This document shows, one piece after another, positions 1,078-42,126 of a stretch of DNA of 63,605 nucleotides. Below the pieces are notes generated by a model. The model saw only the letters and a list, made by a program, of their open reading frames with translations, searched no databases and was not told the DNA's origin. Position numbers and translations under genes: made by a program. Source of the DNA: Solirubrobacterales bacterium (GTDB taxonomy: Bacteria > Actinomycetota > Thermoleophilia > Solirubrobacterales > Thermoleophilaceae); contig JBBREO010000001.1 of the NCBI GenBank assembly GCA_038202855.1, positions 1-63,605 of the forward strand, in the 5' to 3' direction. Numbering within the stretch: the stretch's first letter is position 1; the number at the start of each line of letters is the position of its first letter.

Positions 1078-2204
1078 GCGTCTGCCCGGCCTCCGTGGAG
1101 GAGCTCGCCGCCGCAATCAAGGAGGCCTCGCGGGGTGGCCAGTCGGTCCGCTTCTCGGGCGGCCAAACCAAATGGGGCTGGGGCGCACCGGCCCCGGAGC
1201 CCGACCTCGAGCTCTCGACCCTCGCGCTGGACCAGATCGTCGAGCACAACGAGGGTGACCTGACGGCGGTGCTCGATGCCGGCGTGCCGCTGGCCGCGCT
1301 GGCCGACAGGGTTGGCGCCGCCGACCAGATGCTGGCCCTCGACCCGCCGTGGGGCGAGTCGGCTGCCGCCACGGTGGGCGGCGCCATCGCCACCGCCGAC
1401 AGTGGCCCCCTGCGCCACCGCTACGGGTCGGTTCGCGATCTCGTCCTGGGCATGACCGTCGTGCTGTCCGACGGCACGGTGTCGAAGTCGGGCGGCAAGG
1501 TGATCAAGAACGTGGCCGGGTACGACCTCGCGAAGCTGTTCGCCGGCTCCTATGGCAGCCTCGGGACGATCGTGCGAGTGGCCGTGAGGCTGCATCCGCT
1601 GGCGCCGGCCACCGCGACCGCCGTGGGCCACTCCGACGACCCGCTCTCACTGGCCGATGCCGCCTCCGCCCTCAGCCACGCCCAGCTCGAGCTGCAGAGC
1701 CTCGACGTGCGATGGGAGGATGGCCGCGGCACAGTGCTTGGGCGCTTCGGTGGCGTCACCGCCTCTGACCCCGCAGCCGAGGTGGCCGAGTTGCTCGAAC
1801 AACGTGGGCTCGAGACAGAAGTCGAAGCCGACGACACCCCTCTATGGGACGCCCAGCGCGCCGCACAGCGCTCGACCGACGGCATCGTGGTGCGCGTGTC
1901 CGGCGTCCAGGACCAGACCGGTGCCCTGCTCGCGTTCGCGCAGGAGCACGGCGCACGGGTGGTCGGCCGAGCTGCGCTCGGCCTCTCCTGGGTGACCCTG
2001 CCCGAGCCCGGCCTTCTCGAGGCCCTGCGCACCCTGCTCGCGCCGTCGCCCTGTGTCGTGCTCGACGCGCCCGCTGCGGTCCGCGACGACCTCGATGCGT
2101 GGGGACCGCTCGATCCGGGCAGCACCGCTCTGATGGAGCGCGTGCGCGAGCGATTCGACCCCACCAGAACGTGCGCGCCGGGCATCCTCGCGGGAGGCAT
2201 CTGA
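1074..2204 (+). CDS. glcE: Glycolate oxidase FAD-binding subunit GlcE
   Basis: 376 aa FAD-binding PCMH-type protein (VIKNVAGYDLAKLF motif). There are 4-nt ATGA overlaps with glcD upstream and glcF downstream. Confidence 0.8.
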   Translation: MSVCPASVEELAAAIKEASRGGQSVRFSGGQTKWGWGAPAPEPDLELSTLALDQIVEHNEGDLTAVLDAGVPLAALADRVGAADQMLALDPPWGESAAATVGGAIATADSGPLRHRYGSVRDLVLGMTVVLSDGTVSKSGGKVIKNVAGYDLAKLFAGSYGSLGTIVRVAVRLHPLAPATATAVGHSDDPLSLADAASALSHAQLELQSLDVRWEDGRGTVLGRFGGVTASDPAAEVAELLEQRGLETEVEADDTPLWDAQRAAQRSTDGIVVRVSGVQDQTGALLAFAQEHGARVVGRAALGLSWVTLPEPGLLEALRTLLAPSPCVVLDAPAAVRDDLDAWGPLDPGSTALMERVRERFDPTRTCAPGILAGGI

Positions 2205-3522
2205 TGGAGGCCGGCCCCGGGAAGGATCTGGCAGGGATGCCAGATCCTTCGAATCCAATCCAGATCGGCATCTGGGACGACGACAAGCCGCCCGAGACGA
2301 CGCTGATCGACGACTGCGTGCACTGCGGCTTCTGCCTGCCCACATGTCCGACCTACCAGCTCTGGGGCGAGGAGGCCGACTCTCCGCGCGGGCGGATCGT
2401 GCTCATGCGCGCCGGCCACGAGGAGGACACCGAGCTGTCGGCCCCGATGGTCAACCACTTCGACAACTGCCTGGGCTGCATGGCCTGCGTGACCGCCTGC
2501 CCGTCGGGAGTGCAGTACGACAAGCTGATCGAGGACACGCGCGCCCAGGTGGAGCGCAAGTGGGAGCGAACGGGCGCAGACAAGTGGACGCGCCGGGTGG
2601 TGTTCGCGCTCGCGCCCCACCCCGAACGGCTGAGGTGGCTGATGCCGCTGATGCGCTTCGGCCACGCCACGCGCCTGGACCGGCTGACCGCGCGACTGCC
2701 GCTGGGACGCCTGTCGGAGGTGGCCAAGCTGGCGCCCGATCCGCCGGTGCGAAAGCACCTGCCCGAGCACGTGCCCGCCGTCGGCGAGTCGCGCGGAACC
2801 GTGGCCGTGCTGCGCGGCTGCGTGCAGCGGGTGATGTTCTCGGGCGTGAACGCCGACACCGCCGCGGTGCTCGCCGCCGAGGGCTGGGACGTGGCCGCCC
2901 CCCACGACCCGCGCTGCTGCGGCGCCCTGCAGCTGCACTCGGGCGCCGGCACCGACGCAAGCGACAACGCGAAGACGACGATCGCGGCGCTGGAGGGCTA
3001 CGAGCGAATCGTGGCCAACGCCGCCGGCTGCGGCTCGGCCATGAAGGACTACGGCCACGTGATGCGCGACGATCCCGACTGGGCCGAGCGCGCCCAGGCC
3101 TTCGCCGACAAGGTCTGCGACGTGACCGAGATCCTGGCCGAGGGCGAGCCGCGCGCGCGGCGCCACCCGGTGGAGATGAAGGTGGCCTATCACGACGCCT
3201 GCCACCTGGCCCACGCACAGGGCGTGCGCCAGCCCCCGCGCGAGCTGCTGCGCGGCATACCCGGCGTGGAGATCATGGAGCCGGCCGACTGGGAGATCTG
3301 CTGCGGCTCGGCCGGGATCTACAACGTGGTCAAGCCCGACGCGGCGGCCGAGCTGGGGCGCATGAAGGCCCAGAACCTCTTGGACACGGGCGCCGAGGCC
3401 GTGGTGGCGGCCAACCCCGGCTGCGCGCTGCAGATAACCGCACACACCCGCGGGTTGGGCAAGGAGCTCCCGGTGATCCACCCGGTCGAGCTGCTGGCCC
3501 GCTCGCTGAGAGGAGCAGGCTG

Positions 3523-3523
<1 letters not shown>
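2204..3523 (+). CDS. glcF: Glycolate oxidase iron-sulfur subunit GlcF
   Basis: Two ferredoxin-type Cys clusters (CVHCGFCLPTCP and CLGCMACVTACP) plus CCG domains (CCGA, CCGSAG). I trimmed the track ORF 1844..3523 to the ATG at 2204, which overlaps the glcE stop. An alternative in-frame ATG lies at 2237. Confidence 0.85.
2221..2250. repeat. 30-bp perfect palindromic element (13-bp stem, GGGA loop) inside the glcF 5' coding region
   Basis: The sequence is GAAGGATCTGGCA-GGGA-TGCCAGATCCTTC. It shares the 12-mer GGCAGGGATGCC with the repeats at 15118..15187 and matches 23/30 positions of the element at 30801..30830. Confidence 0.85.
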
Positions 3524-5142
<1,619 letters not shown>

Positions 5143-28049: not shown

Positions 28050-29174
28050 ATGAGCGACGAGCAGCACGACGCCGACCGCCTGCGCACGGTCCTGGACCAG
28101 CCCGCCGCGCTCAGCGTGGGCCTCGAGGAGGAGGTGATGCTGCTCGACCGCGAGACGCTCGACCTCGCCCCGGTGGCCGCGCAGGTCCTGGCCCGCCTGG
28201 ACGGCGACGGGCGCTTCAAGCCCGAGCTGCCCGCCGCCCAGGTCGAGCTGATCACCCCGCCCAGCGAGGGCGTCGCGCAAGCCGGGCAGTCGCTGGCCGG
28301 GGCCCGCGCCGACCTGGAGGCGGCCGCTGCCGGGCTGGCGCTGCCCGCCGCGGCCGGGGTGCACCCGTTCACCCCGGCCGAAGGGGTGCTCAACCCCGAC
28401 GAGCGCTACCGCCACACGCGCGAGGAGTACGGCCCCGTGGCCCGCCGCCAGCTCGTCTTCGGACTTCACGTGCACGTCCGCGTCAACGGGGCCGAACGCG
28501 CCCTGGCCGTGTACAACGCGCTGCGCTCCTACCTCCCCGATCTGGCCGCCCTGGGAGCCAACGCGCCCTTCATCGCCGGGCGCGACTCCGGGATGGCCTC
28601 CGTGCGCCCCAAGATCTCCGAGTTGCTGCCCCGACAGGGGGTGCCGCCCGCCTTCGCCGACCTGGAGGAGTTGGTGGCCGCCCTCGAGTGGGGCGCGGCA
28701 GCGGGCGCGCTGCGCCACCGCGGGATGTGGTGGTGGGAGCTGCGGCTGCACCCGGAGTTCGGCACCGTGGAGGTGCGCGTGCCCGACCAGCAGACCACCG
28801 TGAATGACAGCGAGGCCGTCGCCGCGCTGACCCAATGCCTCGTGCGCCGGCTGGCCGATCGCCACGACGCGGGCCAGCCGCTGCCCGCGCATCCCACCTG
28901 GCGGATCGCCGAGAACCGCTGGTCGGCGGCCCGCCACGGCCTCGACGGGCAGATGGCCGACCTGGACAGCGGCGAGCCGCGCCCGACCCGCGAACGGCTG
29001 CGCGGGCTCGTCGACTCGCTCGCGCCCGAAGCCGACGCGCTGGACGCGCGTGCGGCCCTCGATCACGCGCGCGAGCTCGTGGAGCGAAACGGGGCCGAAC
29101 GCCAGCGCGAGGTGGCCGAGCACGGCGATCTGAGCGGCGTGGTACGGGACCTGGCCGAGCGATTCCGCGCCTGA
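28050..29174 (+). CDS. ybdK: Carboxylate-amine ligase, glutamate-cysteine ligase family 2 (YbdK type)
   Basis: 374 aa with an N-terminal LSVGLEEEVMLLD block, GVHPF, HVHV and WWELRLHPEFGTVEVRVPD. I trimmed it to the ATG at 28050. Confidence 0.85.
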   Translation: MSDEQHDADRLRTVLDQPAALSVGLEEEVMLLDRETLDLAPVAAQVLARLDGDGRFKPELPAAQVELITPPSEGVAQAGQSLAGARADLEAAAAGLALPAAAGVHPFTPAEGVLNPDERYRHTREEYGPVARRQLVFGLHVHVRVNGAERALAVYNALRSYLPDLAALGANAPFIAGRDSGMASVRPKISELLPRQGVPPAFADLEELVAALEWGAAAGALRHRGMWWWELRLHPEFGTVEVRVPDQQTTVNDSEAVAALTQCLVRRLADRHDAGQPLPAHPTWRIAENRWSAARHGLDGQMADLDSGEPRPTRERLRGLVDSLAPEADALDARAALDHARELVERNGAERQREVAEHGDLSGVVRDLAERFRA

Positions 29175-33558: not shown

Positions 33559-34140
33559 TCAGGCTTGGTGGGGTTCGGCGCGGGCCTCGCCGGCCTTGAG
33601 CAGCCGCTCACGCAGGTCGCGCTCGTCCTCGGGCGTGGGATCGAAGCGCGAGACGTCGGGCAGCGCGTCGAGCGCTTCGAGCCCGAACAGCTTCTGAAAC
33701 AGCTCGGTGGTGCGGTAGAGCACCGCGCCGAAGCGCGAGCGGCCCGACTCCTCGACCAGACCCCGCTCCAGCAGCGTGGCGGTGGCCGACTCCGAGGCCA
33801 CGCCGCGGATGCGGGCGATCTCCGGGCGCGATACGGGCTGGAGGTAGCCCACGATCGCCAGGCACTCTGCCTGGGCCTGGGTGAGCGGCGGGGTGCGAGG
33901 GCGGGCCAGGAGGCGCCGGGCGGCCTTCTCGGCCACCGGATCCGTGGCCAGCGTGAACCCGCCGGCCACCTCGCGCAGGACCACTCCGCGGTAGCCGTCG
34001 GCGTAGTGCTCGCGCAGGCGCGCCAGCGCCTCGAGCACCTCGCCCTCCCCGGACTCCGTGGCGTCGGCCAGCCGCTCGAGCGACACGGGCTCCGGGGACA
34101 GGAACAGCAGCGCCTCGGTGATCCGGGCCAGCTCGTTCAC
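33559..34140 (-). CDS. scpB: Segregation and condensation protein B
   Basis: It has ITEALLFLSPEPVSLERLA and two wHTH repeats. The GTG start overlaps the scpA stop. Confidence 0.9.
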   Translation of the reverse strand: MNELARITEALLFLSPEPVSLERLADATESGEGEVLEALARLREHYADGYRGVVLREVAGGFTLATDPVAEKAARRLLARPRTPPLTQAQAECLAIVGYLQPVSRPEIARIRGVASESATATLLERGLVEESGRSRFGAVLYRTTELFQKLFGLEALDALPDVSRFDPTPEDERDLRERLLKAGEARAEPHQA

Positions 34141-34916
34141 GGAGAGCCTGGTCCGGTGCTCGCGCGGCCGGCGCCCGCGCTGCGCTCCTCCCCTGCGGGG
34201 GCCCTGACGGTGATCGGGCCGAAGGGCTCGCTCTGGTCCCAGCTGGCCTCGCCGGACTTGAACAGCTCCAGCAGGGCGAACAGGGTCACGGCCTCGGTCA
34301 TGCGGTCGGCGCCCTGGACGGCGTCGTCGAAGGAGAAGGACGCCTGCTTCCTCAACAGCGTGCGCACGTGGGCCAGGCGCTGCTCCAGCGACACGCGCGG
34401 GCGGGCGAGGTGGTGCAGGTCGATCTGGGGTGGCAAGCGCAGCAGCCCGCCCAGGGCCTCGGCGAGGCGGTCGGGCTCGTAGACGGCCTCGGCCACCTCC
34501 AGGGAGGCGCGGCGCAGGTGCGCGGGCAGCGGAGCGGAGCGATAGCGATAGCCCTGCTCGGCCGTCAGGCGCTCGCGCAGGAAAGCGGCCGCATCGCGGT
34601 AGCGGCGGTACTCGAGCATCCGGGCCAGGAGCTCATCGGCCGCCTCGGAGGGCTCGAGCTCCAGGCCGTCGGTCTCCTCGACGGGGAGCATCATGCGCGA
34701 CTTGAGCTCCAGCAGCGCGGCGATCAGCACCAGGAACTCGGTAGCCGCCTCGAGGTCGATCTCCCCCCTGTCCTGGAGGAAGTCCACGTAGGTCACGACC
34801 ACGTCGGCCAGCTCCACCTCGAGCAGATCGACCTCCTCGCGCAGCACGAGGGTGAGCAGCAGGTCGAAGGGACCCTGGAAGACCTCGAGGTCGAGGTCGA
34901 GCGAGGCGACGGACAT
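34137..34916 (-). CDS. scpA: Segregation and condensation protein A (kleisin)
   Basis: It has FQGPFDLLLTLV near the N-terminus. The C-terminal tail is extended by the repeat element at 34142..34193. Confidence 0.9.
   Translation of the reverse strand: MSVASLDLDLEVFQGPFDLLLTLVLREEVDLLEVELADVVVTYVDFLQDRGEIDLEAATEFLVLIAALLELKSRMMLPVEETDGLELEPSEAADELLARMLEYRRYRDAAAFLRERLTAEQGYRYRSAPLPAHLRRASLEVAEAVYEPDRLAEALGGLLRLPPQIDLHHLARPRVSLEQRLAHVRTLLRKQASFSFDDAVQGADRMTEAVTLFALLELFKSGEASWDQSEPFGPITVRAPAGEERSAGAGRASTGPGSP
34142..34193 (-). repeat. Family-1 palindrome-containing element, copy A (in the scpA 3' end, abutting the scpB start)
   Basis: The minus-strand sense reads GGGGAGGAGCGCAGC-GCGGGCGCCGGCCGC-GCGAGCACCGGACCAGGCTCTC. 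Its flanks are near-identical to copy B. Confidence 0.8.
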
Positions 34917-34981
34917 CGGCGTGAAGCCTAGGGGCAGGCTCGGAGGGCAGCACCGCCGGCCGGACCTGAGAGACTCGCGCC

Positions 34982-35842
34982 ATGGCGACCTATCCAGTGG
35001 CCGGCAAGGTCGCGCTCGTGACCGGCGCGGCGCGCGGCATCGGCTTGGCGACCGCGCACGAGCTCACCCGACGCGGTGCCCGCGTGGTGGTGGTCGACCT
35101 CGACCAGACCGCCGCCGAGGAGGCCGCCGAGCGTCTGGGAGCCGACGCGATGGGCATGAGCTGCGACGTGACCGACGCCGGCGCCCTTCGCGCCGCCGTG
35201 GCCGCGACCGTGGACCGCTACGGCCGGCTGGACGTGGTGGTGGCCAACGCGGGCATCGCCTCGCGGGCGGCCACGGTGAACGCCATGTCCGGCGAGGCGG
35301 CGAACCGCGTGCTGGACGTGAACCTGAACGGCGTCTACAACACGGTGGCGGCCGCCTTGCCGCAGATCGTCGCCAACCGCGGGCACGTGGTGGTCATCGC
35401 CTCGATCTACGCCTTCGCCAACGGCGTCGGCACCGCGCCGTACGCCATGGCCAAGGCCGGCGTGGAGCAGCTGGGCCGCGCGCTGCGGGTGGAGTTGGCC
35501 CAGCACGGGGCGGGCGCCAGCGTCGCCTACTTCGGCTTCATCGACACGGAGATGGTGCACCGCGGCATCGACCAGGACCCGGCCGCCGAGCGGCTGCACA
35601 AGGCCGTGCCGAAGGTCCTCCAGAAGCGGCTCGAGCCTTCCCAGGCGGGCAAGGGCATCGTGGACGGCATCGAGAAGCGCGCGCCGCGCATCATCCGCCC
35701 CCACCGCTGGGTCGCGTTCTCGCTGCTTCGCGGGCTGGTGAACCCGCTGCTGGACACGGCCATGGTCAAGGACGCGGACACCCAGGCCTTGGCCGCCGAG
35801 CTCGACAGGCGCGGCGACCAGGAGCAGCCGACCACGGCCTAG
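34982..35842 (+). CDS. Short-chain dehydrogenase/reductase
   Basis: It has the motifs TGAARGIG, NAGI and YAMAK. Confidence 0.85.
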   Translation: MATYPVAGKVALVTGAARGIGLATAHELTRRGARVVVVDLDQTAAEEAAERLGADAMGMSCDVTDAGALRAAVAATVDRYGRLDVVVANAGIASRAATVNAMSGEAANRVLDVNLNGVYNTVAAALPQIVANRGHVVVIASIYAFANGVGTAPYAMAKAGVEQLGRALRVELAQHGAGASVAYFGFIDTEMVHRGIDQDPAAERLHKAVPKVLQKRLEPSQAGKGIVDGIEKRAPRIIRPHRWVAFSLLRGLVNPLLDTAMVKDADTQALAAELDRRGDQEQPTTA

Positions 35843-35848
35843 CGGCCG

Positions 35849-36841
35849 CTAGGCGGGCTTGCCCACGCCCATCGCGGCGCGCACGTCGACCATCGTCGCC
35901 GCCGCCAGCTCGCGGGCCCGCTCGGCGCCCCGATCCAGGGCGGCCTCGAGCGCCTGCTCGTCGGGGCGCAGCTCGGCGTAGCGCTCGCGCACGGGGCGCA
36001 GGTAGGCCACCAGCGCCTCGGCCACGGCGCCCTTGAACGTGCCGTACTGCTGGCCCTCGAACTCGGCCTCGACTGCCTCGGGGCCGACGCCGCGGACCAC
36101 CGAGAGGATGTCGATCAGGTTTGTGATGCCCTCCTTGCCCGGGCCGCGGCGGACCTCGCCCCCGGAGTCGGTCACCGCGCTCTTCACCTTCTTGACGATC
36201 CGCTGCTCCTCGTCGTCGATGTAGATCAGGCCCTTCTCCTCCGAGCTCGTCGTGCTCATCTTCGACGTGGGGTCCTGCAGATCCATTATCCGAGCCCCGA
36301 CCGTGGGTATGCGGGGCTCGGGCACCACCAGCGTGCCCTCTCCGTAGGCCGCGTTGAAGCGGATGGCGATGTCGCGCATCAGCTCGACGTGCTGGCGCTG
36401 GTCGTCGCCCACCGGGACCTCGTGGGCGCGGTAGACGAGCACGTCGGCGGCCATCAGAACCGGGTAGAAGAACAGGCCGGCGGAGACCAGCTCCCGCTGG
36501 CGCGCCGACTTCTCCTTGAACTGGGTCATCCGGTTCAGGTCTCCGTGCGCGGTGACCGAGCTCAGCAGCCACGACAGCTCCGTGTGCTCGCGCACGTCGG
36601 ACTGGCGAAAGAGGACGCAGCGTTCGGGGTCCAGGCCGGCCGCCATCAGCATGGCGGCGGTGTCGTAGAGGTAGCGGCGCAGCTCCGCCGGCTCGTAGGG
36701 AACGGTCGTGGCGTGCAGGTCCACGATGCAGTAGATGGCGGGATCGCCGCGCTCCTGACCCTCCAGGTAGCCGCGCACGGCCCCGATGTAGTTGCCCAGG
36801 TGCTTGCGCCCGGTGGGCTGGATGCCGCTGAAGATGCGCAC
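35849..36841 (-). CDS. trpS: Tryptophan--tRNA ligase
   Basis: It has GIQPTGRKHLGNYIG (HIGH-type) and a KMSTT (KMSKS-type) loop. 330 aa. Confidence 0.95.
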   Translation of the reverse strand: MRIFSGIQPTGRKHLGNYIGAVRGYLEGQERGDPAIYCIVDLHATTVPYEPAELRRYLYDTAAMLMAAGLDPERCVLFRQSDVREHTELSWLLSSVTAHGDLNRMTQFKEKSARQRELVSAGLFFYPVLMAADVLVYRAHEVPVGDDQRQHVELMRDIAIRFNAAYGEGTLVVPEPRIPTVGARIMDLQDPTSKMSTTSSEEKGLIYIDDEEQRIVKKVKSAVTDSGGEVRRGPGKEGITNLIDILSVVRGVGPEAVEAEFEGQQYGTFKGAVAEALVAYLRPVRERYAELRPDEQALEAALDRGAERARELAAATMVDVRAAMGVGKPA

Positions 36842-36872
36842 GGCGGGGCAGTCTACGGGCGCCCGCTGCCCC

Positions 36873-37115
36873 CTACTCGATCAGCCCACCGCCATCACCC
36901 GACCCGAGCCCGAAGGCCAGCACCACGGCGCACGCGGCCAGCGCCACGATCGCCGCCCACCGTGCCGCCGGGTCGCCCGCGCGATGGGCGACGGCGATGC
37001 CCGCCGCGCCGAAGGCCAGGCCCACCACCGGAAGGGTGAGCAGCGCGAGGACGGCCGCGGCTACGAACGCCCAGGCCTGGAAGCGGTCCAGGCGCGCCTT
37101 GCGGTCGGGGCCCAC
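36873..37115 (-). CDS. Small two-helix membrane protein, hypothetical
   Basis: 80 aa with two hydrophobic segments. It fits the gap between gcvPB and trpS, and I recognised no motif. Confidence 0.4.
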   Translation of the reverse strand: MGPDRKARLDRFQAWAFVAAAVLALLTLPVVGLAFGAAGIAVAHRAGDPAARWAAIVALAACAVVLAFGLGSGDGGGLIE

Positions 37116-37121
37116 GGGGCG

Positions 37122-38750
37122 CTAGAGCGCGCCGGAGGTCTCGCCGTCGGCGTCGCCCGCCCGGTCGGCCTCGCCCGGATTGGGGTCCTCCGGAGTCCAG
37201 CGCACGACCGGGTGCTTGGCCGCGCCGGCCTCGTCGAGCCGCCGCACCGATGTGGTGTAGGGCGCGTTCTGGGCGATCGAGGGATCCTCGGCCGCCTCTT
37301 CGAGGATGGAGCGCACCACGTCGGCGAAGTGGTCCAGGCGCTCCTTGGGCTCGGTCTCGGTGGGCTCGATCATCAGCGCCTCGTCCACCAGGAGCGGGAA
37401 GTAGACCGTGGGCGGGTGCACCTCGTGGTCGAGCATCCGCTTGGCGATGTCCAGCGTCTTGATCCCCAGCTTGTCGCGCGCCCCCTTGCCCGAGAGCACG
37501 AACTCGTGCATGCACAGGCGGTCGAAGTCCACCGGCAGGTACTCCGCGATCCCCTCCTCGGCCAGCCGGGCCTTGAGGTAGTTGGCGTTCAGCACGGCGG
37601 TCTCGGACACCTCGCGCAGACCCTCCCCGCCCAGCGAGCAGATGTAGGCGTAGGAGCGCACGAACACGCCGAAGTTGCCCTGGAAGCCGCGCATCTTGCC
37701 GATCGACTTGGGCCGGTCGACGTCGAGCGTGAAGTGCGGTCCGTCGCCGTTGAGAGCCGGGTCCGGTGCTCGCCCGACCGACGATCGGGCTGCGCTCCTC
37801 CCAGCCGACTCCGACGAGCGCACGACCTGCGGCCGCGGCAGGAACGGCTCGATCCGGTCTGAGCAGGCGATCGGCCCAGCTCCCGGCCCGCCGCCGCCGT
37901 GGGGCTGGGTGAAGGTCTTGTGCAGGTTGTAGTGAACGATGTCGAAGCCCATGTCTCCGGGGCGGGAGATGCCCATCACGGCGTTCAGGTTCGCCCCGTC
38001 GTAGTACAGGGTGCCGCCCACCTCGTGCACGATCGAGGCGATCTCCTCGATGTTGCGGTCGAACAGCCCCAGCGTGTTGGGGTTGGTGAGCATCAGGCAC
38101 GCGACCTGGTCGTCGGCCTTGGCGCGCAGGTCGTCGATGTCCACGCCGCCGTGCTCGTCGGTGCCCACCTTCACGACCTCGTAGCCGGCCATCGTCACCG
38201 TTGCCGGGTTCGTGCCGTGAGCGGTGTCGGGCGTGAGCACCTTGGTGCGGTGCTCGCCGCGATCCTCGTGGTAGGCGCGGGTGAGCAGCAGCCCGGCCAG
38301 CTCGCCGTGCGACCCGGCGGAGGGCTGCAGCGACACGTGCGGTAGCCCGGCCACCTCGCCGAGGGCCCCCTGCAGGCGCCACATCAGCTCGAGCGCGCCC
38401 TGGGCCAGCTCGGGGTCCTGCAGCGGGTGCAGGCGGGCGTGGCCGGGCAGCGCGGCCACGCGCTCGTGCAGCTTGGGGTTGTGCTTCATCGTGCACGACC
38501 CGAGCGGGTAGAAGCCGGTGTCCAGGTCGAAGTTCTTCTTGGACAGGCCGTTGTAGTGGCGCACGATCTCGGGCTCGGCCACCTCGGGCAGCTCGGCCGG
38601 CTGCGAGCGCCGCGCCCAGTCGGGCAGCAGGTCGCCCACCGGCACCTCGGGAACGTCGAGTGCTGGACCCACGAACGCGCGCCGGCCCTCGCGCGAGCGC
38701 TCGTAGATGGTCACCGTCTGGTCGTCCGCGCGGGGGTCCAGGGCCGCCAT
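37122..38750 (-). CDS. gcvPB: Glycine dehydrogenase (decarboxylating) subunit 2
   Basis: It has YPLGSCTMKHNP, TPDTAHGTNPA and NLHKTF (PLP lysine). I trimmed it to the ATG at 38750, which overlaps the gcvPA stop. It carries the in-frame repeat insertion at 37752..37802. Confidence 0.95.
   Translation of the reverse strand: MAALDPRADDQTVTIYERSREGRRAFVGPALDVPEVPVGDLLPDWARRSQPAELPEVAEPEIVRHYNGLSKKNFDLDTGFYPLGSCTMKHNPKLHERVAALPGHARLHPLQDPELAQGALELMWRLQGALGEVAGLPHVSLQPSAGSHGELAGLLLTRAYHEDRGEHRTKVLTPDTAHGTNPATVTMAGYEVVKVGTDEHGGVDIDDLRAKADDQVACLMLTNPNTLGLFDRNIEEIASIVHEVGGTLYYDGANLNAVMGISRPGDMGFDIVHYNLHKTFTQPHGGGGPGAGPIACSDRIEPFLPRPQVVRSSESAGRSAARSSVGRAPDPALNGDGPHFTLDVDRPKSIGKMRGFQGNFGVFVRSYAYICSLGGEGLREVSETAVLNANYLKARLAEEGIAEYLPVDFDRLCMHEFVLSGKGARDKLGIKTLDIAKRMLDHEVHPPTVYFPLLVDEALMIEPTETEPKERLDHFADVVRSILEEAAEDPSIAQNAPYTTSVRRLDEAGAAKHPVVRWTPEDPNPGEADRAGDADGETSGAL
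37752..37802 (-). repeat. Family-1 palindrome-containing element, copy B (in-frame inside gcvPB)
   Basis: The minus-strand sense reads GGGAGGAGCGCAGC-CCGATCGTCGGTCGG-GCGAGCACCGGACCCGGCTCTC. Its 51 nt encode GRSAARSSVGRAPDPAL in a loop that I recall as roughly 20 residues shorter in other GcvPB proteins. Confidence 0.8.
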
Positions 38751-40096
38751 CAGACGCGCACCTCCTCGCGTGCGCCCGACACGACGGCGGCCAGGCGGTC
38801 TATGTCGGCGCGCGAGCGGCGCTCGGTGAGCGCGATCAGCAAGCCGTCCCCGTACTCGGGGTAGCTCTCGCCCAGCCGGTAGCCGGGATTGATGCCGGCG
38901 GCACGGGCGCGCTCGAACAGACCGTCGAGGTCGGGCACGCGCACGGCGAACTCGCGCACCACCGGCCCGGGGTTGATCGCCTCCAGGCCCAGCGCCTCGC
39001 GGGCGTAGTGGGTGCGCCGGAGCATCAGCTCGCCCAGCTCCACCAGGCCCTTGCGGCCGAGCCACGACAGGTAGACCACGCCGGCCAGGGCGTTCAGCGC
39101 CTGGGCCGTGCAGATGTTGTGCGTGGCCTTCTCGCGACGGATGTGCTGCTCGCGCGTCTGCAGGGTGAGCACGAAGCCGCGCTTGCCGTCCATGTCGCGG
39201 GTCTCGCCGGCGATCCGGCCCGGCATCTTTCGAATGAAGCGGTCAGAGGCGGCGAAGAAGCCAAAGGACGGCCCGCCGTAGTCGAGGCGATTGCCCAGCG
39301 ACTGGCCCTCGCCCACGACGATGTCGGCGCCCTGGCGGCCGGGGGCCTCGAGGATGCCCAGCGGCAGCGGGTCGGCGGCGACCACGAACAGCGCGCCGGT
39401 GGCCTTGGCGGCCTCGCCCAGGCGCTCGATCTCCTCGACCGTGCCCAGGAAGTTGGGCTGCTGCACGAAGACCGCGGCGGTGTCGTCGTCCACGAGGGCG
39501 GCAAGGGCCTCGAGGTCGGTGGCGCCGTCCTCGGTGAGCGACGCCTCCACGACGGTCATGCCGTAGCCGGCCGCGTGGGTGGCCAGCGCCTCGCGCGAGT
39601 GCGGGTGCAGCCCGCGGGAGGTGACCAGCTTGGAGCGCTTGGTCTCGAGCTTGGCCAGGTACCCGGCGGCGGCCACGGCGCTCGGGCCCTCGTACACCGA
39701 GGCGTTGGAAACCGGCAGGCCCGTGAGCTCGGAGATCGCCGTTTGGAACTCGAACATCACCTGCAGCCCGCCCTGCGAGATCTCGGGCTGGTACGGCGTG
39801 TACGGCGTGAGGAACTCCGACCGGCCCAGAATCGAGTCGATGATCGCCGGCACGTAGTGGTCGTACATCCCGGCGCCGAGGAACGTGGTCTCGGCGTCGG
39901 CGTGCACGTTGCGCGCCGCCAGTGAGGACAGGTGGTCGAACACCTCGGTCTCCGACATGCCCGCGGGGATGTCCAGCGGCCGGTCCAACCGCACGGCAGC
40001 CGGGATCTCGGCGAACAGCTCGTCCAGCGACCCGACGCCGATGGCGTCCAGCATCGCCTTGCGGTCGGCGTCGGTTGCGGAGGTGTAGGTGGACAT
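38750..40096 (-). CDS. gcvPA: Glycine dehydrogenase (decarboxylating) subunit 1
   Basis: 448 aa with FLGAGMYDHY and TPYQPEISQG blocks. Confidence 0.95.
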   Translation of the reverse strand: MSTYTSATDADRKAMLDAIGVGSLDELFAEIPAAVRLDRPLDIPAGMSETEVFDHLSSLAARNVHADAETTFLGAGMYDHYVPAIIDSILGRSEFLTPYTPYQPEISQGGLQVMFEFQTAISELTGLPVSNASVYEGPSAVAAAGYLAKLETKRSKLVTSRGLHPHSREALATHAAGYGMTVVEASLTEDGATDLEALAALVDDDTAAVFVQQPNFLGTVEEIERLGEAAKATGALFVVAADPLPLGILEAPGRQGADIVVGEGQSLGNRLDYGGPSFGFFAASDRFIRKMPGRIAGETRDMDGKRGFVLTLQTREQHIRREKATHNICTAQALNALAGVVYLSWLGRKGLVELGELMLRRTHYAREALGLEAINPGPVVREFAVRVPDLDGLFERARAAGINPGYRLGESYPEYGDGLLIALTERRSRADIDRLAAVVSGAREEVRV

Positions 40097-40140
40097 GGTT
40101 CGCTGGTTCGCTGGTGCGCTGGCTTGCTGGTTCTGGTTCT
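40097..40140. repeat. Tandem octamer/hexamer microsatellite filling the gcvH-gcvPA spacer
   Basis: The array reads GGTTCGCT GGTTCGCT GGTGCGCT GGCTTGCT GGTTCT GGTTCT. It runs from the gcvH stop codon to the base before the gcvPA ATG. Confidence 0.85.
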
Positions 40141-40525
40141 ACGACTGAAGCAGGTTCTTGTACGCGTCCACGTCGAGCAGGGATTCCACCTCGCTCGGGT
40201 CGCTCAGCTTCACCTTGACCAGCCAGCCGTCGCCGTAGGGGTCGTCGTTGATCGCGTCGGGCGACTCCGACAGCGCCTCGTTGATCTCGGTCACCTCGCC
40301 GGACAGGGGCGCGAACACGTCGGACACGGCCTTGACCGACTCGACCTCGGTGTAGGGCTGGTCCTTGGTCACCGTCGCGCCGACCTCGGGCGGGTCGTAG
40401 AAGACCACCTCGCCCAGCGCGTCCTGGGCATACCAAGTCACGCCGAAGACGGCCTCCTCACCCTCGATCCGGGCCCAGTCGTGCTCGGGGTGGTACTTCA
40501 GGTCATCGGGATAGCTCTCCGCCAC
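40139..40525 (-). CDS. gcvH: Glycine cleavage system H protein
   Basis: 128 aa with the lipoyl-lysine block VESVKAVSD. The GTG at 40525 is preceded by AGGAG. I trimmed it from track ORF 40139..40642. Confidence 0.95.
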   Translation of the reverse strand: MAESYPDDLKYHPEHDWARIEGEEAVFGVTWYAQDALGEVVFYDPPEVGATVTKDQPYTEVESVKAVSDVFAPLSGEVTEINEALSESPDAINDDPYGDGWLVKVKLSDPSEVESLLDVDAYKNLLQS

Positions 40526-40532
40526 TTCGCTC

Positions 40533-41669
40533 CTATTCCTTCGATGTTCTCGGTGCGGTGCTCGGCCGATCGACGATCGGCCTGTGCTCCTCCCGCTTAT
40601 AAAGGGGCTTGGCGCGCACCTCGGCGGCACGCGCCCTTCCACGTACGTCGACCTCGATCTTCGTGCCCGGCTCCGCGGACTCCTCGGGCACGTAGCCCAT
40701 CCCGATCCCGTAGCCCAGGCACGGCGACATGGTCCCGCTGGTCACCACGCCCTCCCCGGCGTCCGAGTGGATCGTGTTGCCCTGACGCGGTATTCCCGGG
40801 CCCGTGAAGGCGAACGGCACCAGCTTGCCGCCCGTGTCGACGCCACGCAGGGCGTCGGAGCCGATGAAGCCGGTGTCGAGCTTCACCGCCCAGCCCAACC
40901 CGGCCTCGAGCGGGTTGTGGTCGAGGGTGAGGTCGTTGCCGTAGAGGTGGAAGCACACTTCGGTGCGCAGCGTGTCGCGCGCCGCCAGTCCGGCGGGTAC
41001 CACGCCCTCGTCGAGCAGCGCGTCCCAGATCGCCGGCGCCGCGCTGGGGGGCATCAGCAGCTCCACGCCGTCCTCGCCGGTGTAGCCCGTTCCACAGGCC
41101 AGCACCTGCGAGCCGGCCACGCCCACCGTGGCGGTGCGCATCCGGGCCGGCAGCTCGCCGCGGGTCAGCCGGGCCACGATCTCGCGCGCCTCGGGACCCT
41201 GGACGGCCAGCATCGCGTACTTCTCGGCGGCGTCGGAGACGGTCACGTCGAAGTCACCGGCGTGACCGGCGAACCAGGCGTAGTCGCTCTCGTGGTTCGA
41301 CGCGTTGGTCACCGTCAGGAAGCGCTCCCGGTCTCCGAAGCGCAGCCGGTAGGTGAACAGGTCGTCGATCACGCCGCCGTCCTCGCGACAGAGCACGGAG
41401 TACTGCGCTCCGCCATCGGCCAGCGTGGTCAGGTCGTTGGACAACAGGTGCTGGAGGAAGGCCTCGGCATCGGGGCCCTCGGTCTCGATCTCGCCCATGT
41501 GGGAGACGTCGAAGACCCCGGCGCCCTGCCGGACGGCCAGGTGCTCCTGGCGCACGCCTTCGTACTGCACGGGCATCTCCCAGCCCGCGAAGGGGACGAG
41601 CTTGGCGCCGGCCGCCTCGTGGCGGCCATAGAGCGACGTACGCCGCAGGGTGTCCAGGGCTTCGGACAA
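40533..41669 (-). CDS. gcvT: Glycine cleavage system aminomethyltransferase T
   Basis: It has [10 protein letters not shown] and FDVSHMGE blocks. The start is uncertain because there is no ATG, and I chose TTG at 41669. The C-terminus is extended by the repeat element at 40546..40594. Confidence 0.85.
40546..40594 (-). repeat. Family-1 palindrome-containing element, copy C (in the gcvT 3' end, 20 nt upstream of the gcvH start)
   Basis: The minus-strand sense reads GGGAGGAGCACAG-GCCGATCGTCGATCGGC-CGAGCACCGCACCGAGAAC. The central palindrome resembles copy B. It is read in a different frame from copy B. Confidence 0.75.
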
Positions 41670-41746
41670 GGACGGGAGGTTACCGGCGGGATCGCGTTCG
41701 CCGTGCGTCCATCCCGCCCTGGCTCTGCAGTGCGCGCAGGTTTGGG

Positions 41747-42085
41747 CTAGGAGTCCGCGACAGCCGGCTCGTCGCCCTGAGCTCGGAGCGCCAGGGCGCT
41801 CAGGAAGGCGCCGGTGAGTGCCGCGACAGTGACCGCCACGCCCCCGTACGGCGAGACTTCCCGGCGGCGTGCGGCCCGCAGGCCGGCGACCGTGTCGAGG
41901 ACATCGCACCCGAGGCCGCCGCGGACCCAGCGCTGCTGGGCATCCCCGTCGCTGGTGAGCGTGCCCCATCCGAGGGCCGCGTCACGCGCGGCGAACAGCC
42001 GCCCCATGTACGGCAACTGCGGGTTGCCGTCGATGTCCAGGCCGAAGAGGCGGCACACCCGTCGCGGCGCGAGCCATGCCGACAC
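41747..42085 (-). CDS. Hypothetical small protein with a hydrophobic C-terminal segment
   Basis: 112 aa. The composition is plausible, and it occupies the gap between ftsZ and the gcv operon. I recognised no motif. Confidence 0.4.
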   Translation of the reverse strand: MSAWLAPRRVCRLFGLDIDGNPQLPYMGRLFAARDAALGWGTLTSDGDAQQRWVRGGLGCDVLDTVAGLRAARRREVSPYGGVAVTVAALTGAFLSALALRAQGDEPAVADS

Positions 42086-42126
42086 GCCGACCGCGATGCG
42101 CAGGCCGCCCAGGAGGCGGAGGGGCG

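Follow-up and report, generated by a model that had tools for sequence, protein, structure and literature searches.

The DNA analysed here, referred to as the window, is a stretch of 63,605 nucleotides (nt) from a Solirubrobacterales bacterium of the family Thermoleophilaceae (GenBank assembly GCA_038202855.1, contig JBBREO010000001.1, positions 1 to 63,605 of the forward strand). Its minus strand carries gcvT (40533..41669, 378 aa), gcvH (40139-40525), gcvPA, gcvPB (37122..38750, 542 aa), scpA (34137..34916, 259 aa) and scpB (33559-34140), and the identity of these genes was confirmed. Three of them each contain one minus-strand copy of a short, hairpin-centred repeat. Copy A (34141..34197, ends accurate to about ±3 nt) is an insert of approximately 57 nt at the 3' end of scpA, copy B (37752..37805) is a 54-nt in-frame insert in gcvPB, and copy C (40545..40598) is a 54-nt in-frame insert close to the 3' end of gcvT. 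The TGA stop codon of scpA overlaps the GTG start of the following gene, scpB, and gcvH follows gcvT with its GTG start 19 nt past the tail of copy C.

On the minus strand, all three copies consist of GGGAGGAGCRCAG, a 17-nt hairpin, CGAGCACCGSACC and a short CT-rich tail; the layout per copy can be written as GGGAGGAGC(G/A)CAG, hairpin, CGAGCACCG(G/C)ACC and tail. The hairpin of each copy has a 7-bp stem and a 3-nt loop. In copy A, a 5' extension is followed by the left arm GGGAGGAGCGCAG (34192-34180), the hairpin CGCGGGCGCCGGCCGCG (34179-34163), the right arm CGAGCACCGGACC (34162-34150) and the tail AGGCTCTCC (34149-34141). Copy B starts with GCT and continues with the left arm (37802-37790), the hairpin CCCGATCGTCGGTCGGG (37789-37773), the right arm (37772-37760) and the tail CGGCTCTC (37759-37752). 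Copy C starts with AAGC, followed by the left arm GGGAGGAGCACAG (40594-40582), the hairpin GCCGATCGTCGATCGGC (40581-40565), the right arm (40564-40552) and the tail GAGAACA (40551-40545). The extension ahead of the left arm thus varies from 3 to 6 nt (AAGC, GCT, CCGCAG), and the tail after the right arm from 7 to 9 nt.

A covariance model built from 105 copies collected outside the window was used to score the locus. The three copies were recovered where an earlier interpretation made from the letters alone (the sequence-only reading) had placed them, with scores of 70.9 bits for copy B, 66.3 for copy C and 64.3 for copy A (E approximately 1e-14 to 1e-16). The runner-up in the 63.6-kb window reached 16.9 bits, so there are exactly three copies, far above chance. 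A model match of 16 bits at 38232-38272 (minus strand; gcvPB coding sequence YHEDRGEHRTKV) weakly resembles the two arms joined without a hairpin, but it was judged to be a chance match because its peptide (the HEDRGEHRT region) is conserved in the Thermus enzyme. Two 13-mers resembling the left and right arms, at 28521-28533 and 38244-38256, are likewise chance matches within coding sequence. As the sequence-only reading had noted, copy B is read in a different frame (GRSAARSSVGRAPDPAL) from copies A and C.

Comparison of the host proteins with known structures and domains indicates where the additional residues lie. The Pfam ScpA domain stops at residue 237 of 259, 22 residues ahead of the stop codon, and copy A reads as C-terminal residues of ScpA. 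GcvPB has 542 residues, compared to 495-530 in typical relatives, and relative to the Thermus thermophilus P-protein beta subunit (1WYT_B) it has 25 extra residues between residues 302 and 304. Copy B encodes AGRSAARSSVGRAPDPAL in the linker that joins the pyridoxal phosphate domain and the C-terminal domain. Bacillus subtilis GcvT (1YX2) ends with ...PFYKR at the equivalent of residue 359 of 378, which makes the window protein 19 residues longer; copy C encodes 18 residues, and the native SKE codons and the stop come after it. An AlphaFold model of GcvPB, intended as evidence for a disordered surface loop at the insert, had a mean predicted local distance difference test score of 50.5 and was not used.

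Empty sites in close relatives establish that the copies are insertions, as the sequence-only reading had proposed. The closest GcvPB homologue in our protein collection (P0002, 87% identical) reads ...VVRSESENGSGPHFTL as an uninterrupted stretch, where the window protein reads ...VVRSSES[AGRSAARSSVGRAPDPAL]NGDGPHFTL. The contig encoding P0002 (L119, with its duplicate L120) is syntenic with the window over ftsZ, gcvT, gcvH, gcvPA, gcvPB, a class I tRNA synthetase gene, scpA and scpB, and DNA alignment revealed clean empty sites for all three copies. A further contig, L121 (GcvPB 88% identical), is without copies A and C, and the empty gcvT site is seen in L119, L120 and L121. The empty scpA site in L119 reads GTGAGAGCCCG/GTGAAC, and GcvT of L119 has 364 residues. 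By DNA alignment the inserts measure 54 nt in gcvT, 54 nt in gcvPB and approximately 57 nt in scpA, all multiples of three, and no target-site duplication is present in any of the three filled-versus-empty comparisons. The native ends are kept downstream of the inserts, namely TCG AAG GAA TAG in gcvT and the GTGA stop/start overlap of scpA with scpB. Because the original last codons and the stop remain downstream, copies A and C, inserted in frame a few codons ahead of that stop, extend the 3' ends of their genes; the earlier idea that they replace the natural ends has to be given up.

The same GcvPB linker carries independent insertions in two other lineages. P0001, encoded on L121, has a separate insertion, ...NGTEP[PGRSAARSPNGRAPDQAL]FELD, which uses the same frame, lies several codons further 3' and has another stem (CCCGTTC/GAACGGG). 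In P0075 (L139), the linker copy is read in another frame (GAQAGRWPAEHRRS) and has yet another stem. None of the remaining GcvPB homologues with an extractable loop contains a recognisable copy. L119 has copies elsewhere, one inside rlmN and one at the gcvH-gcvPA junction (L119:5580-5642, plus strand), where the window has none. To judge from these alignments, the pattern is one of presence/absence polymorphism and repeated independent hits, not of an inherited ancestral loop. Both L119 copies belong to a subfamily in which a further module of 21 nt (CCCACCTkyGGTAGGACwGGC) separates GATC from GGG in the 3' arm.

A pattern scan of species-representative genomes detected at least 118 loci, almost all of which were supplied by at least 31 species-level metagenome-assembled genomes (MAGs) of Thermoleophilaceae, Solirubrobacterales or unclassified Actinomycetota. 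The search of relatives that the sequence-only reading had called for thus yielded many more copies, and nhmmer applied to these loci identified 143 sites with 158 full-length copies in all. Leaving the seeded copy aside, there is about one further site per 22 kb, compared with 3 in 64 kb for the window, and rough extrapolation puts a genome at around 100-200 sites. The unit has a length of 51-57 nt and is composed of an invariant 13-nt left arm (GGGAGGAGCGCAG), the hairpin, an invariant 13-nt right arm (CGAGCACCG(G/C)ACC) and a loosely conserved, CT-rich tail of 7-9 nt. On the left, the information content ends abruptly at the first G of the arm, outside which it is at background; on the right, it decays over approximately 10 nt past the arm.

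Covariation supports the hairpin. In the stem, 95.6% of cells are paired and five of the seven pairs show compensatory changes; none of 500 shuffles matched the observed covariation score, and any offset of the pairing partner abolished pairing. Because copies had been selected for a match in the outer four pairs, the inner pairs provide the independent evidence; the stem pairing was confirmed in 152 copies chosen with less filtering. Even within one genome, different stems (CCCGATC/GATCGGG, CCGGAAC/GTTCCGG, CGCGATC/GATCGCG, GCCGATC/GATCGGC) are combined with invariant arms. Stem pair 6 is a G-G mismatch in approximately 16% of copies (25 of 152), for example CCCGGGC...GGCCGGG or CCCGAGC...GGTCGGG, and this is a wobble pair on neither strand. 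The arms can pair with each other only in short blocks (GG/CC, GC/GC). In the predicted fold of the three window copies, the last G of the left arm pairs with the first C of the right arm, and pairing continues as GC/GC and GG/CC mini-helices that are split by fixed unpaired bases. Since the arms are invariant, covariation within the family has no bearing on their pairing. As a single strand, the element would on these predictions fold into a hairpin seated on a fixed set of internal loops.

Rfam gave no match at the gathering score in the window, and at E≤10 over 33900-40800 only an unrelated, chance match to a small nucleolar RNA-like family; no Rfam match overlapped the copies from other phyla described below. 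In the literature searched, neither the left-arm sequence in this context nor repeats in this class were found. The 51-57-nt hairpin repeat is previously undescribed.

Copies also occur in arrays. Direct tandem arrays with a period of 47-55 nt are present in L005, L030, L041, L079 and L088. In nested arrays, several left halves are followed by several right halves, and 22 of 29 nested layers retain the final 5-6 nt of the outer 3' arm, in agreement with the outer 5' arm. The inner unit is inserted at a constant position close to the boundary between the loop and the 3' arm, with approximately 4 bases of the outer hairpin missing. At L040:3005-3260 (plus strand), two stem types alternate as a(b(a(b(a)))), mirrored left and right. 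Further nested arrays lie at L039:4570-4830, L093:1736-1900 and L075:4103-4260, and among the four loci the arrays reach up to six left halves followed by at least four right halves. The composite b(a), in which an a-type copy sits inside a b-type copy, was seen repeatedly, at several loci and in two or more MAGs, which suggests that it may move as a whole. Left and right half counts are often unequal, which implies that half-unit slippage also occurs. Pre-existing hairpins were considered as a general target and rejected, as the flanks of 87 single copies show no excess complementarity (5.39 versus 5.07 bp when shuffled); the empty scpA and gcvPB sites do contain short palindromes.

Genomic context was assessed with a codon-usage gene caller that was trained on the loci and gets the window genes right. 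Approximately 70% of copies are intergenic, although coding sequence makes up about 90% of the DNA. The commonest intergenic setting is between convergent genes (34 sites), followed by co-directional genes with the copy in sense (24) or antisense (23) orientation and by divergent genes (10). Some 8-10% of copies seem to lie in frame inside coding sequences, where one frame is strongly coding on both sides with no intervening stop. None of the six frames of the element core contains a stop codon, and in-frame copies would for this reason simply be translated. All three sense frames are used, and occasionally an antisense frame, which agrees with the earlier claim that conservation acts on nucleotides and not on the protein. 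Survival in frame within essential genes, for which Rickettsia palindromic elements had been named as the precedent, proved to be a general property of the family.

Host genes outside the window were named from their flanking peptides, without a database search. In-frame copies lie in Lhr-like helicase genes (L017; two tandem copies in L087; a nested pair in L032) and in genes for NucS (L071), ClpB (L034), an AspRS-like protein (L084), a PolA-like protein (L095) and a GST-like protein (L018). The RlmN gene has an in-frame copy with the 21-nt module (L119:14594-14665, minus strand). In L082, trpD contains an internal antisense copy (ERSGARGNDVPAALLP; 1936-1986, minus strand), and a nested array (2779-2900, plus strand) forms the TrpD C-terminus and overlaps the start of trpC. 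Further antisense copies were found in a NuoM-like gene and a membrane glycosyltransferase-like gene. In coding sequences, approximately 12-14 copies are in sense and 3-4 in antisense orientation, an excess that we attribute to antisense peptides being more hydrophobic and cysteine-rich. Candidates for out-of-frame copies that would need ribosomal bypass all proved to be ordinary gene junctions, apart from one in a RecJ-like gene (L077:2328-2375, plus strand). The coding frame of this gene shifts where the element lies and is restored some 300 nt later; in this long-read-style Microflora Danica (MFD) MAG the change looks like paired indel errors, or alternatively an out-of-frame insert.

Several other features of the gcv region were recorded. 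The gcvH-gcvPA spacer of the window (40097-40138, minus strand) contains a run of short AACCAG(C)-like repeats, aaccagaaccagcaagccagcgcaccagcgaaccagcgaacc. Upstream of gcvT (41670-42126, minus strand), no glycine riboswitch was found in the Rfam gathering-threshold scan of the window, and a small open reading frame (ORF) lies at 41747-42058 between ftsZ and gcvT. In L121, a FitA-like/PIN toxin-antitoxin pair (3333-3958, plus strand) occupies the interval between ftsZ and gcvT. This pair is not in L119, and the corresponding gap of approximately 460 nt in the window is too short for it.

Outside the Actinomycetota, the same two 13-nt arms surround unrelated hairpins in MAGs assigned to Rhizobacter, Myxococcales, Acidobacteriota and low-GC Bacillota. 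The Rhizobacter copy (L063:1642-1679, plus strand) lies 47 nt beyond a tRNA gene and the Myxococcales copy (L069:2794-2833, plus strand) approximately 75 nt beyond 5S rRNA, and two Acidobacteriota loci were found (L007:4296-4335 and L028:6342-6382, both minus strand). Three Bacillota loci (L022:5372-5411, minus; L052:6848-6887, minus; L064:135-173, plus) share a repeat of 150-256 nt, and their neighbours are unrelated housekeeping genes with no transposase among them. All cross-phylum copies are enclosed by a further, long outer stem, and L063, L069, L007 and L028 share one predicted core fold. For the Bacillota copy, stability across the ensemble is limited to the outer stem, the minimum free energy structure pairs the arms differently, and the centroid contains the inner hairpin only. 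Matches in Pseudonocardia, Streptomyces, Mycobacterium, one Myxococcaceae MAG and one Actinomycetota MAG (L002) have no hairpin and are probably due to chance. A scan of viral contigs gave no matches, and a metagenome scan with the CAGC variant of the right arm gave 17, all of them high-GC and Thermoleophilia-like, with no new phyla. Our tentative interpretation is that an element of this kind has spread sporadically between phyla by horizontal transfer, and that whatever recognises the arms keeps them constant.

Taken together, the three window copies probably belong to a non-autonomous dispersed DNA repeat of Thermoleophilaceae that spreads by insertion, with the copies inside genes being carried as translated passengers. 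New copies arise through insertion without target-site duplication and fall mainly in intergenic DNA, especially past the 3' ends of genes, as well as beside existing copies, giving tandem arrays, or inside their hairpins, giving nested arrays. According to this model, selection would remove in-gene insertions unless their length is a multiple of three and the place is tolerant. The window copies would lengthen a surface linker of GcvPB and the C-termini of GcvT and ScpA by 18-19 hydrophilic residues each, many of them Gly, Arg, Ser, Ala or Pro, and such inserts would be passengers, not functional parts of the operons. The peptides are probably added without breaking the host proteins. A putative trans-acting protein that recognises both invariant arms and the shape of the hairpin would move the element.

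Several observations weigh against this model. The lack of terminal inverted repeats and of target-site duplication is a misfit with a classical cut-and-paste miniature inverted-repeat transposable element (MITE). The loci yielded no transposase or other gene for mobilisation. No copy has an ORF between its arms, and candidates for an autonomous version with a gene between the arms, i.e. left and right arms kilobases apart, turned out to be separate copies; the genes between inverted copies in L005 and L082 are ordinary ones such as trpD. In approximately 1 Mb of loci, tblastn with an IS608 TnpA query found no match to a TnpA of the IS200/IS605 type (IS, insertion sequence), and no gene for a REP-associated tyrosine transposase (RAYT; REP, repetitive extragenic palindromic) was seen; given this query and the extent of sequence covered, the negative is weak evidence. 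Orientation shows no bias with respect to local GC skew (65 versus 57, with skew over 8 kb being a noisy proxy for replication direction) and no significant bias towards the gene strand (0.54, p=0.11), which makes an IS200/IS605-like route aimed at the lagging strand less likely. The constancy of the arms across species and even phyla goes beyond a purely selfish, decaying repeat, and a host-level function is possible. Translation of the inserts is deduced from intact ORFs and coding potential, and the insertion polymorphism, taken by itself, would fit gain or precise loss alike.

With the dispersed-repeat model in place, three other explanations can be compared with it. In one, the repeat is a functional cis-acting RNA module, i.e. 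an mRNA stabiliser, a processing site or a device for translational coupling through the Shine-Dalgarno-like arm GGGAGGAG, recruited at operon junctions such as scpA-scpB and gcvT-gcvH. The window itself invites this view, since all its copies are in sense to their operons and two lie at gene junctions, and so does the sense excess inside genes. The combination of invariant flanks and stems that covary points to purifying selection for a fold, and the outer helix of the Bacillota variant has four G-U wobble pairs on the strand running from left to right arm, as read from the sequences and the fold. Across the family, however, co-directional copies are split 24 to 23, the convergent setting is the commonest and ten sites are divergent, which speaks against the role in coupling or mRNA processing suggested by the sequence-only reading. 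No ATG, GTG or TTG follows GGAGG at the Shine-Dalgarno distance of 5-10 nt, and the spacing to the next start is inconsistent (0 nt, 19 nt, or a copy internal to a gene). Stem mismatches show no clear excess of G-T (13) over A-C (8), folding energy does not differ consistently between the sense and antisense strands, the same operons are free of the element in close relatives, and Rfam has no match. An RNA module is improbable.

Copies might instead spread through DNA repair, with palindromes breaking at the hairpin (e.g. by SbcCD-type cleavage) and the free element being captured by end joining or template switching. Such a process would yield a few untemplated junction bases and small target deletions, and no duplication. 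The absence of target-site duplication at all three sites, the variable 3-6-nt extension ahead of the left arm, the loss of about 4 nt of the outer hairpin at the fixed entry point of nested copies, and the lack of strand bias are all in line with it, and Actinomycetota generally encode Ku and LigD. It offers no source for the free copies, though, and leaves the invariance of the 13-nt arms across species and phyla unexplained, and single copies are without an excess of flanking inverted repeats (5.39 versus 5.07 bp). We consider this route very unlikely. As for ancestral protein loops or convergent low-complexity sequence, in which nucleotide similarity would be incidental, the length of the GcvPB linker does vary among relatives (44-71 residues between fixed motifs). 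However, one 43-nt core is read in three frames in different proteins, most copies are intergenic and the closest orthologues are without the element; the element-free orthologues and the use of several frames refute this explanation, which retains practically no probability.

A bolder proposal is that the arm-hairpin-arm unit is the structured recognition site of an unrecognised mobilisation system that spreads horizontally, or a ribozyme-like RNA. This is conceivable, but on balance doubtful. The core would consist of GGA, GG, A, GC and GCA, a hairpin of any sequence, and then GA, GC, A, CC and GCAG, kept across phyla, and outside Thermoleophilaceae it would be enclosed by a long outer stem. 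If true, it would describe a system that inserts without target duplication, nests recursively in its own hairpin and remodels proteins in frame.

Comparison with known repeats helps to define the dispersed repeat. Rickettsia palindromic elements (RPEs) are multi-copy palindromic repeats found in intergenic DNA and in frame in unrelated housekeeping genes, where they are translated as additional peptide in tolerant parts of the proteins (PMC10969869). Like RPEs, the Thermoleophilaceae element occurs in frame in many unrelated ORFs, including the three window genes. RPEs, in contrast, are about 100-150 bp long, belong to Rickettsia (Alphaproteobacteria) and encode one conserved peptide per family, whereas the present element is 51-57 nt long, actinobacterial and read in all three sense frames; it also differs in its invariant non-complementary arms, its free-sequence hairpin and its self-nesting. 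The comparison with RPEs therefore holds for behaviour, in which they are the closest functional analogue, and not for membership. Enterobacterial repetitive intergenic consensus (ERIC) sequences and the repeat units RU-1/2/3 are small enterobacterial mobile repeats that are sometimes intragenic and add peptide sequence, according to Delihas (2007, PMC2759123). As imperfect palindromes of 100-170 bp with MITE-like ends that are rarely intragenic, they are a weaker parallel than RPEs.

REP sequences and bacterial interspersed mosaic elements resemble the repeat in being short and hairpin-centred, with a conserved single-stranded motif beside the stem and hundreds of copies that are single or clustered. 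They share an enrichment after the 3' ends of genes, which here takes the form of convergent intergenic regions being commonest. However, REPs have a 5' tetranucleotide of the GTAG type, are extragenic by definition, typically form inverted pairs (REPINs) and co-occur with a REP-flanked RAYT gene. The Thermoleophilaceae element has no GTAG at the foot of the hairpin (flanks GGGAGGAGCGCAG and CGAGCACCGSACC), has two arms of 13 nt, forms direct tandem and nested clusters, and occurs within genes. Mycobacterial interspersed repetitive units (MIRUs) are actinobacterial repeats of approximately 50 nt at operon junctions, sometimes in direct tandem, and they can supply short reading frames that abut the stop and start codons of neighbouring genes. 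The element is similar in host group, length, location at junctions within operons, occasional tandem arrangement and such reading frames, but MIRUs are non-palindromic and oriented with the operon, unlike a repeat with a covarying hairpin and a 24 versus 23 orientation.

A structural analogy, and only that, exists with the attC sites of integrons, which are recognised as a fold, as is proposed here, and which also form paired blocks with conserved unpaired bases below a stem-loop of variable sequence and in which structure is likewise conserved more than sequence. attC sites have complementary R''/R' core sites (RYYYAAC, GTTRRRY) and lie at the ends of gene cassettes beside an integrase, and neither the motif nor the context is present here. 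Classical MITEs differ in the position of the inverted repeat, which in our element is internal, with terminal arms complementary only in 2-bp blocks and no target duplication. Elements derived from IS200/IS605 have subterminal hairpins at both ends and a strong replication bias, as opposed to a single hairpin and a skew of 65 versus 57. The repeat is thus not a member of the RPE, ERIC/RU, REP/RAYT, classical MITE, MIRU or IS200/IS605-derived families. The invariant non-complementary arms, free-sequence hairpin, absence of duplication, self-nesting and cross-phylum occurrence suggest a mobilisation mechanism unlike that of classical MITEs or REPs, and the covariance model makes the question of mobilisation directly testable.

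The element is a counterpart of the Rickettsia elements that is much smaller, built differently and able to nest in itself, and its hosts are free-living actinobacteria of high GC content. It extends Rickettsia-type translated palindromic inserts in essential enzymes to a poorly studied soil lineage, with an element of about one third the size. It also represents a concrete source of lineage-specific indels in conserved proteins such as GcvPB, Lhr, ClpB, TrpD, RlmN and NucS, which could cause errors in annotation, in phylogenetic markers based on indels and in predicted structures.

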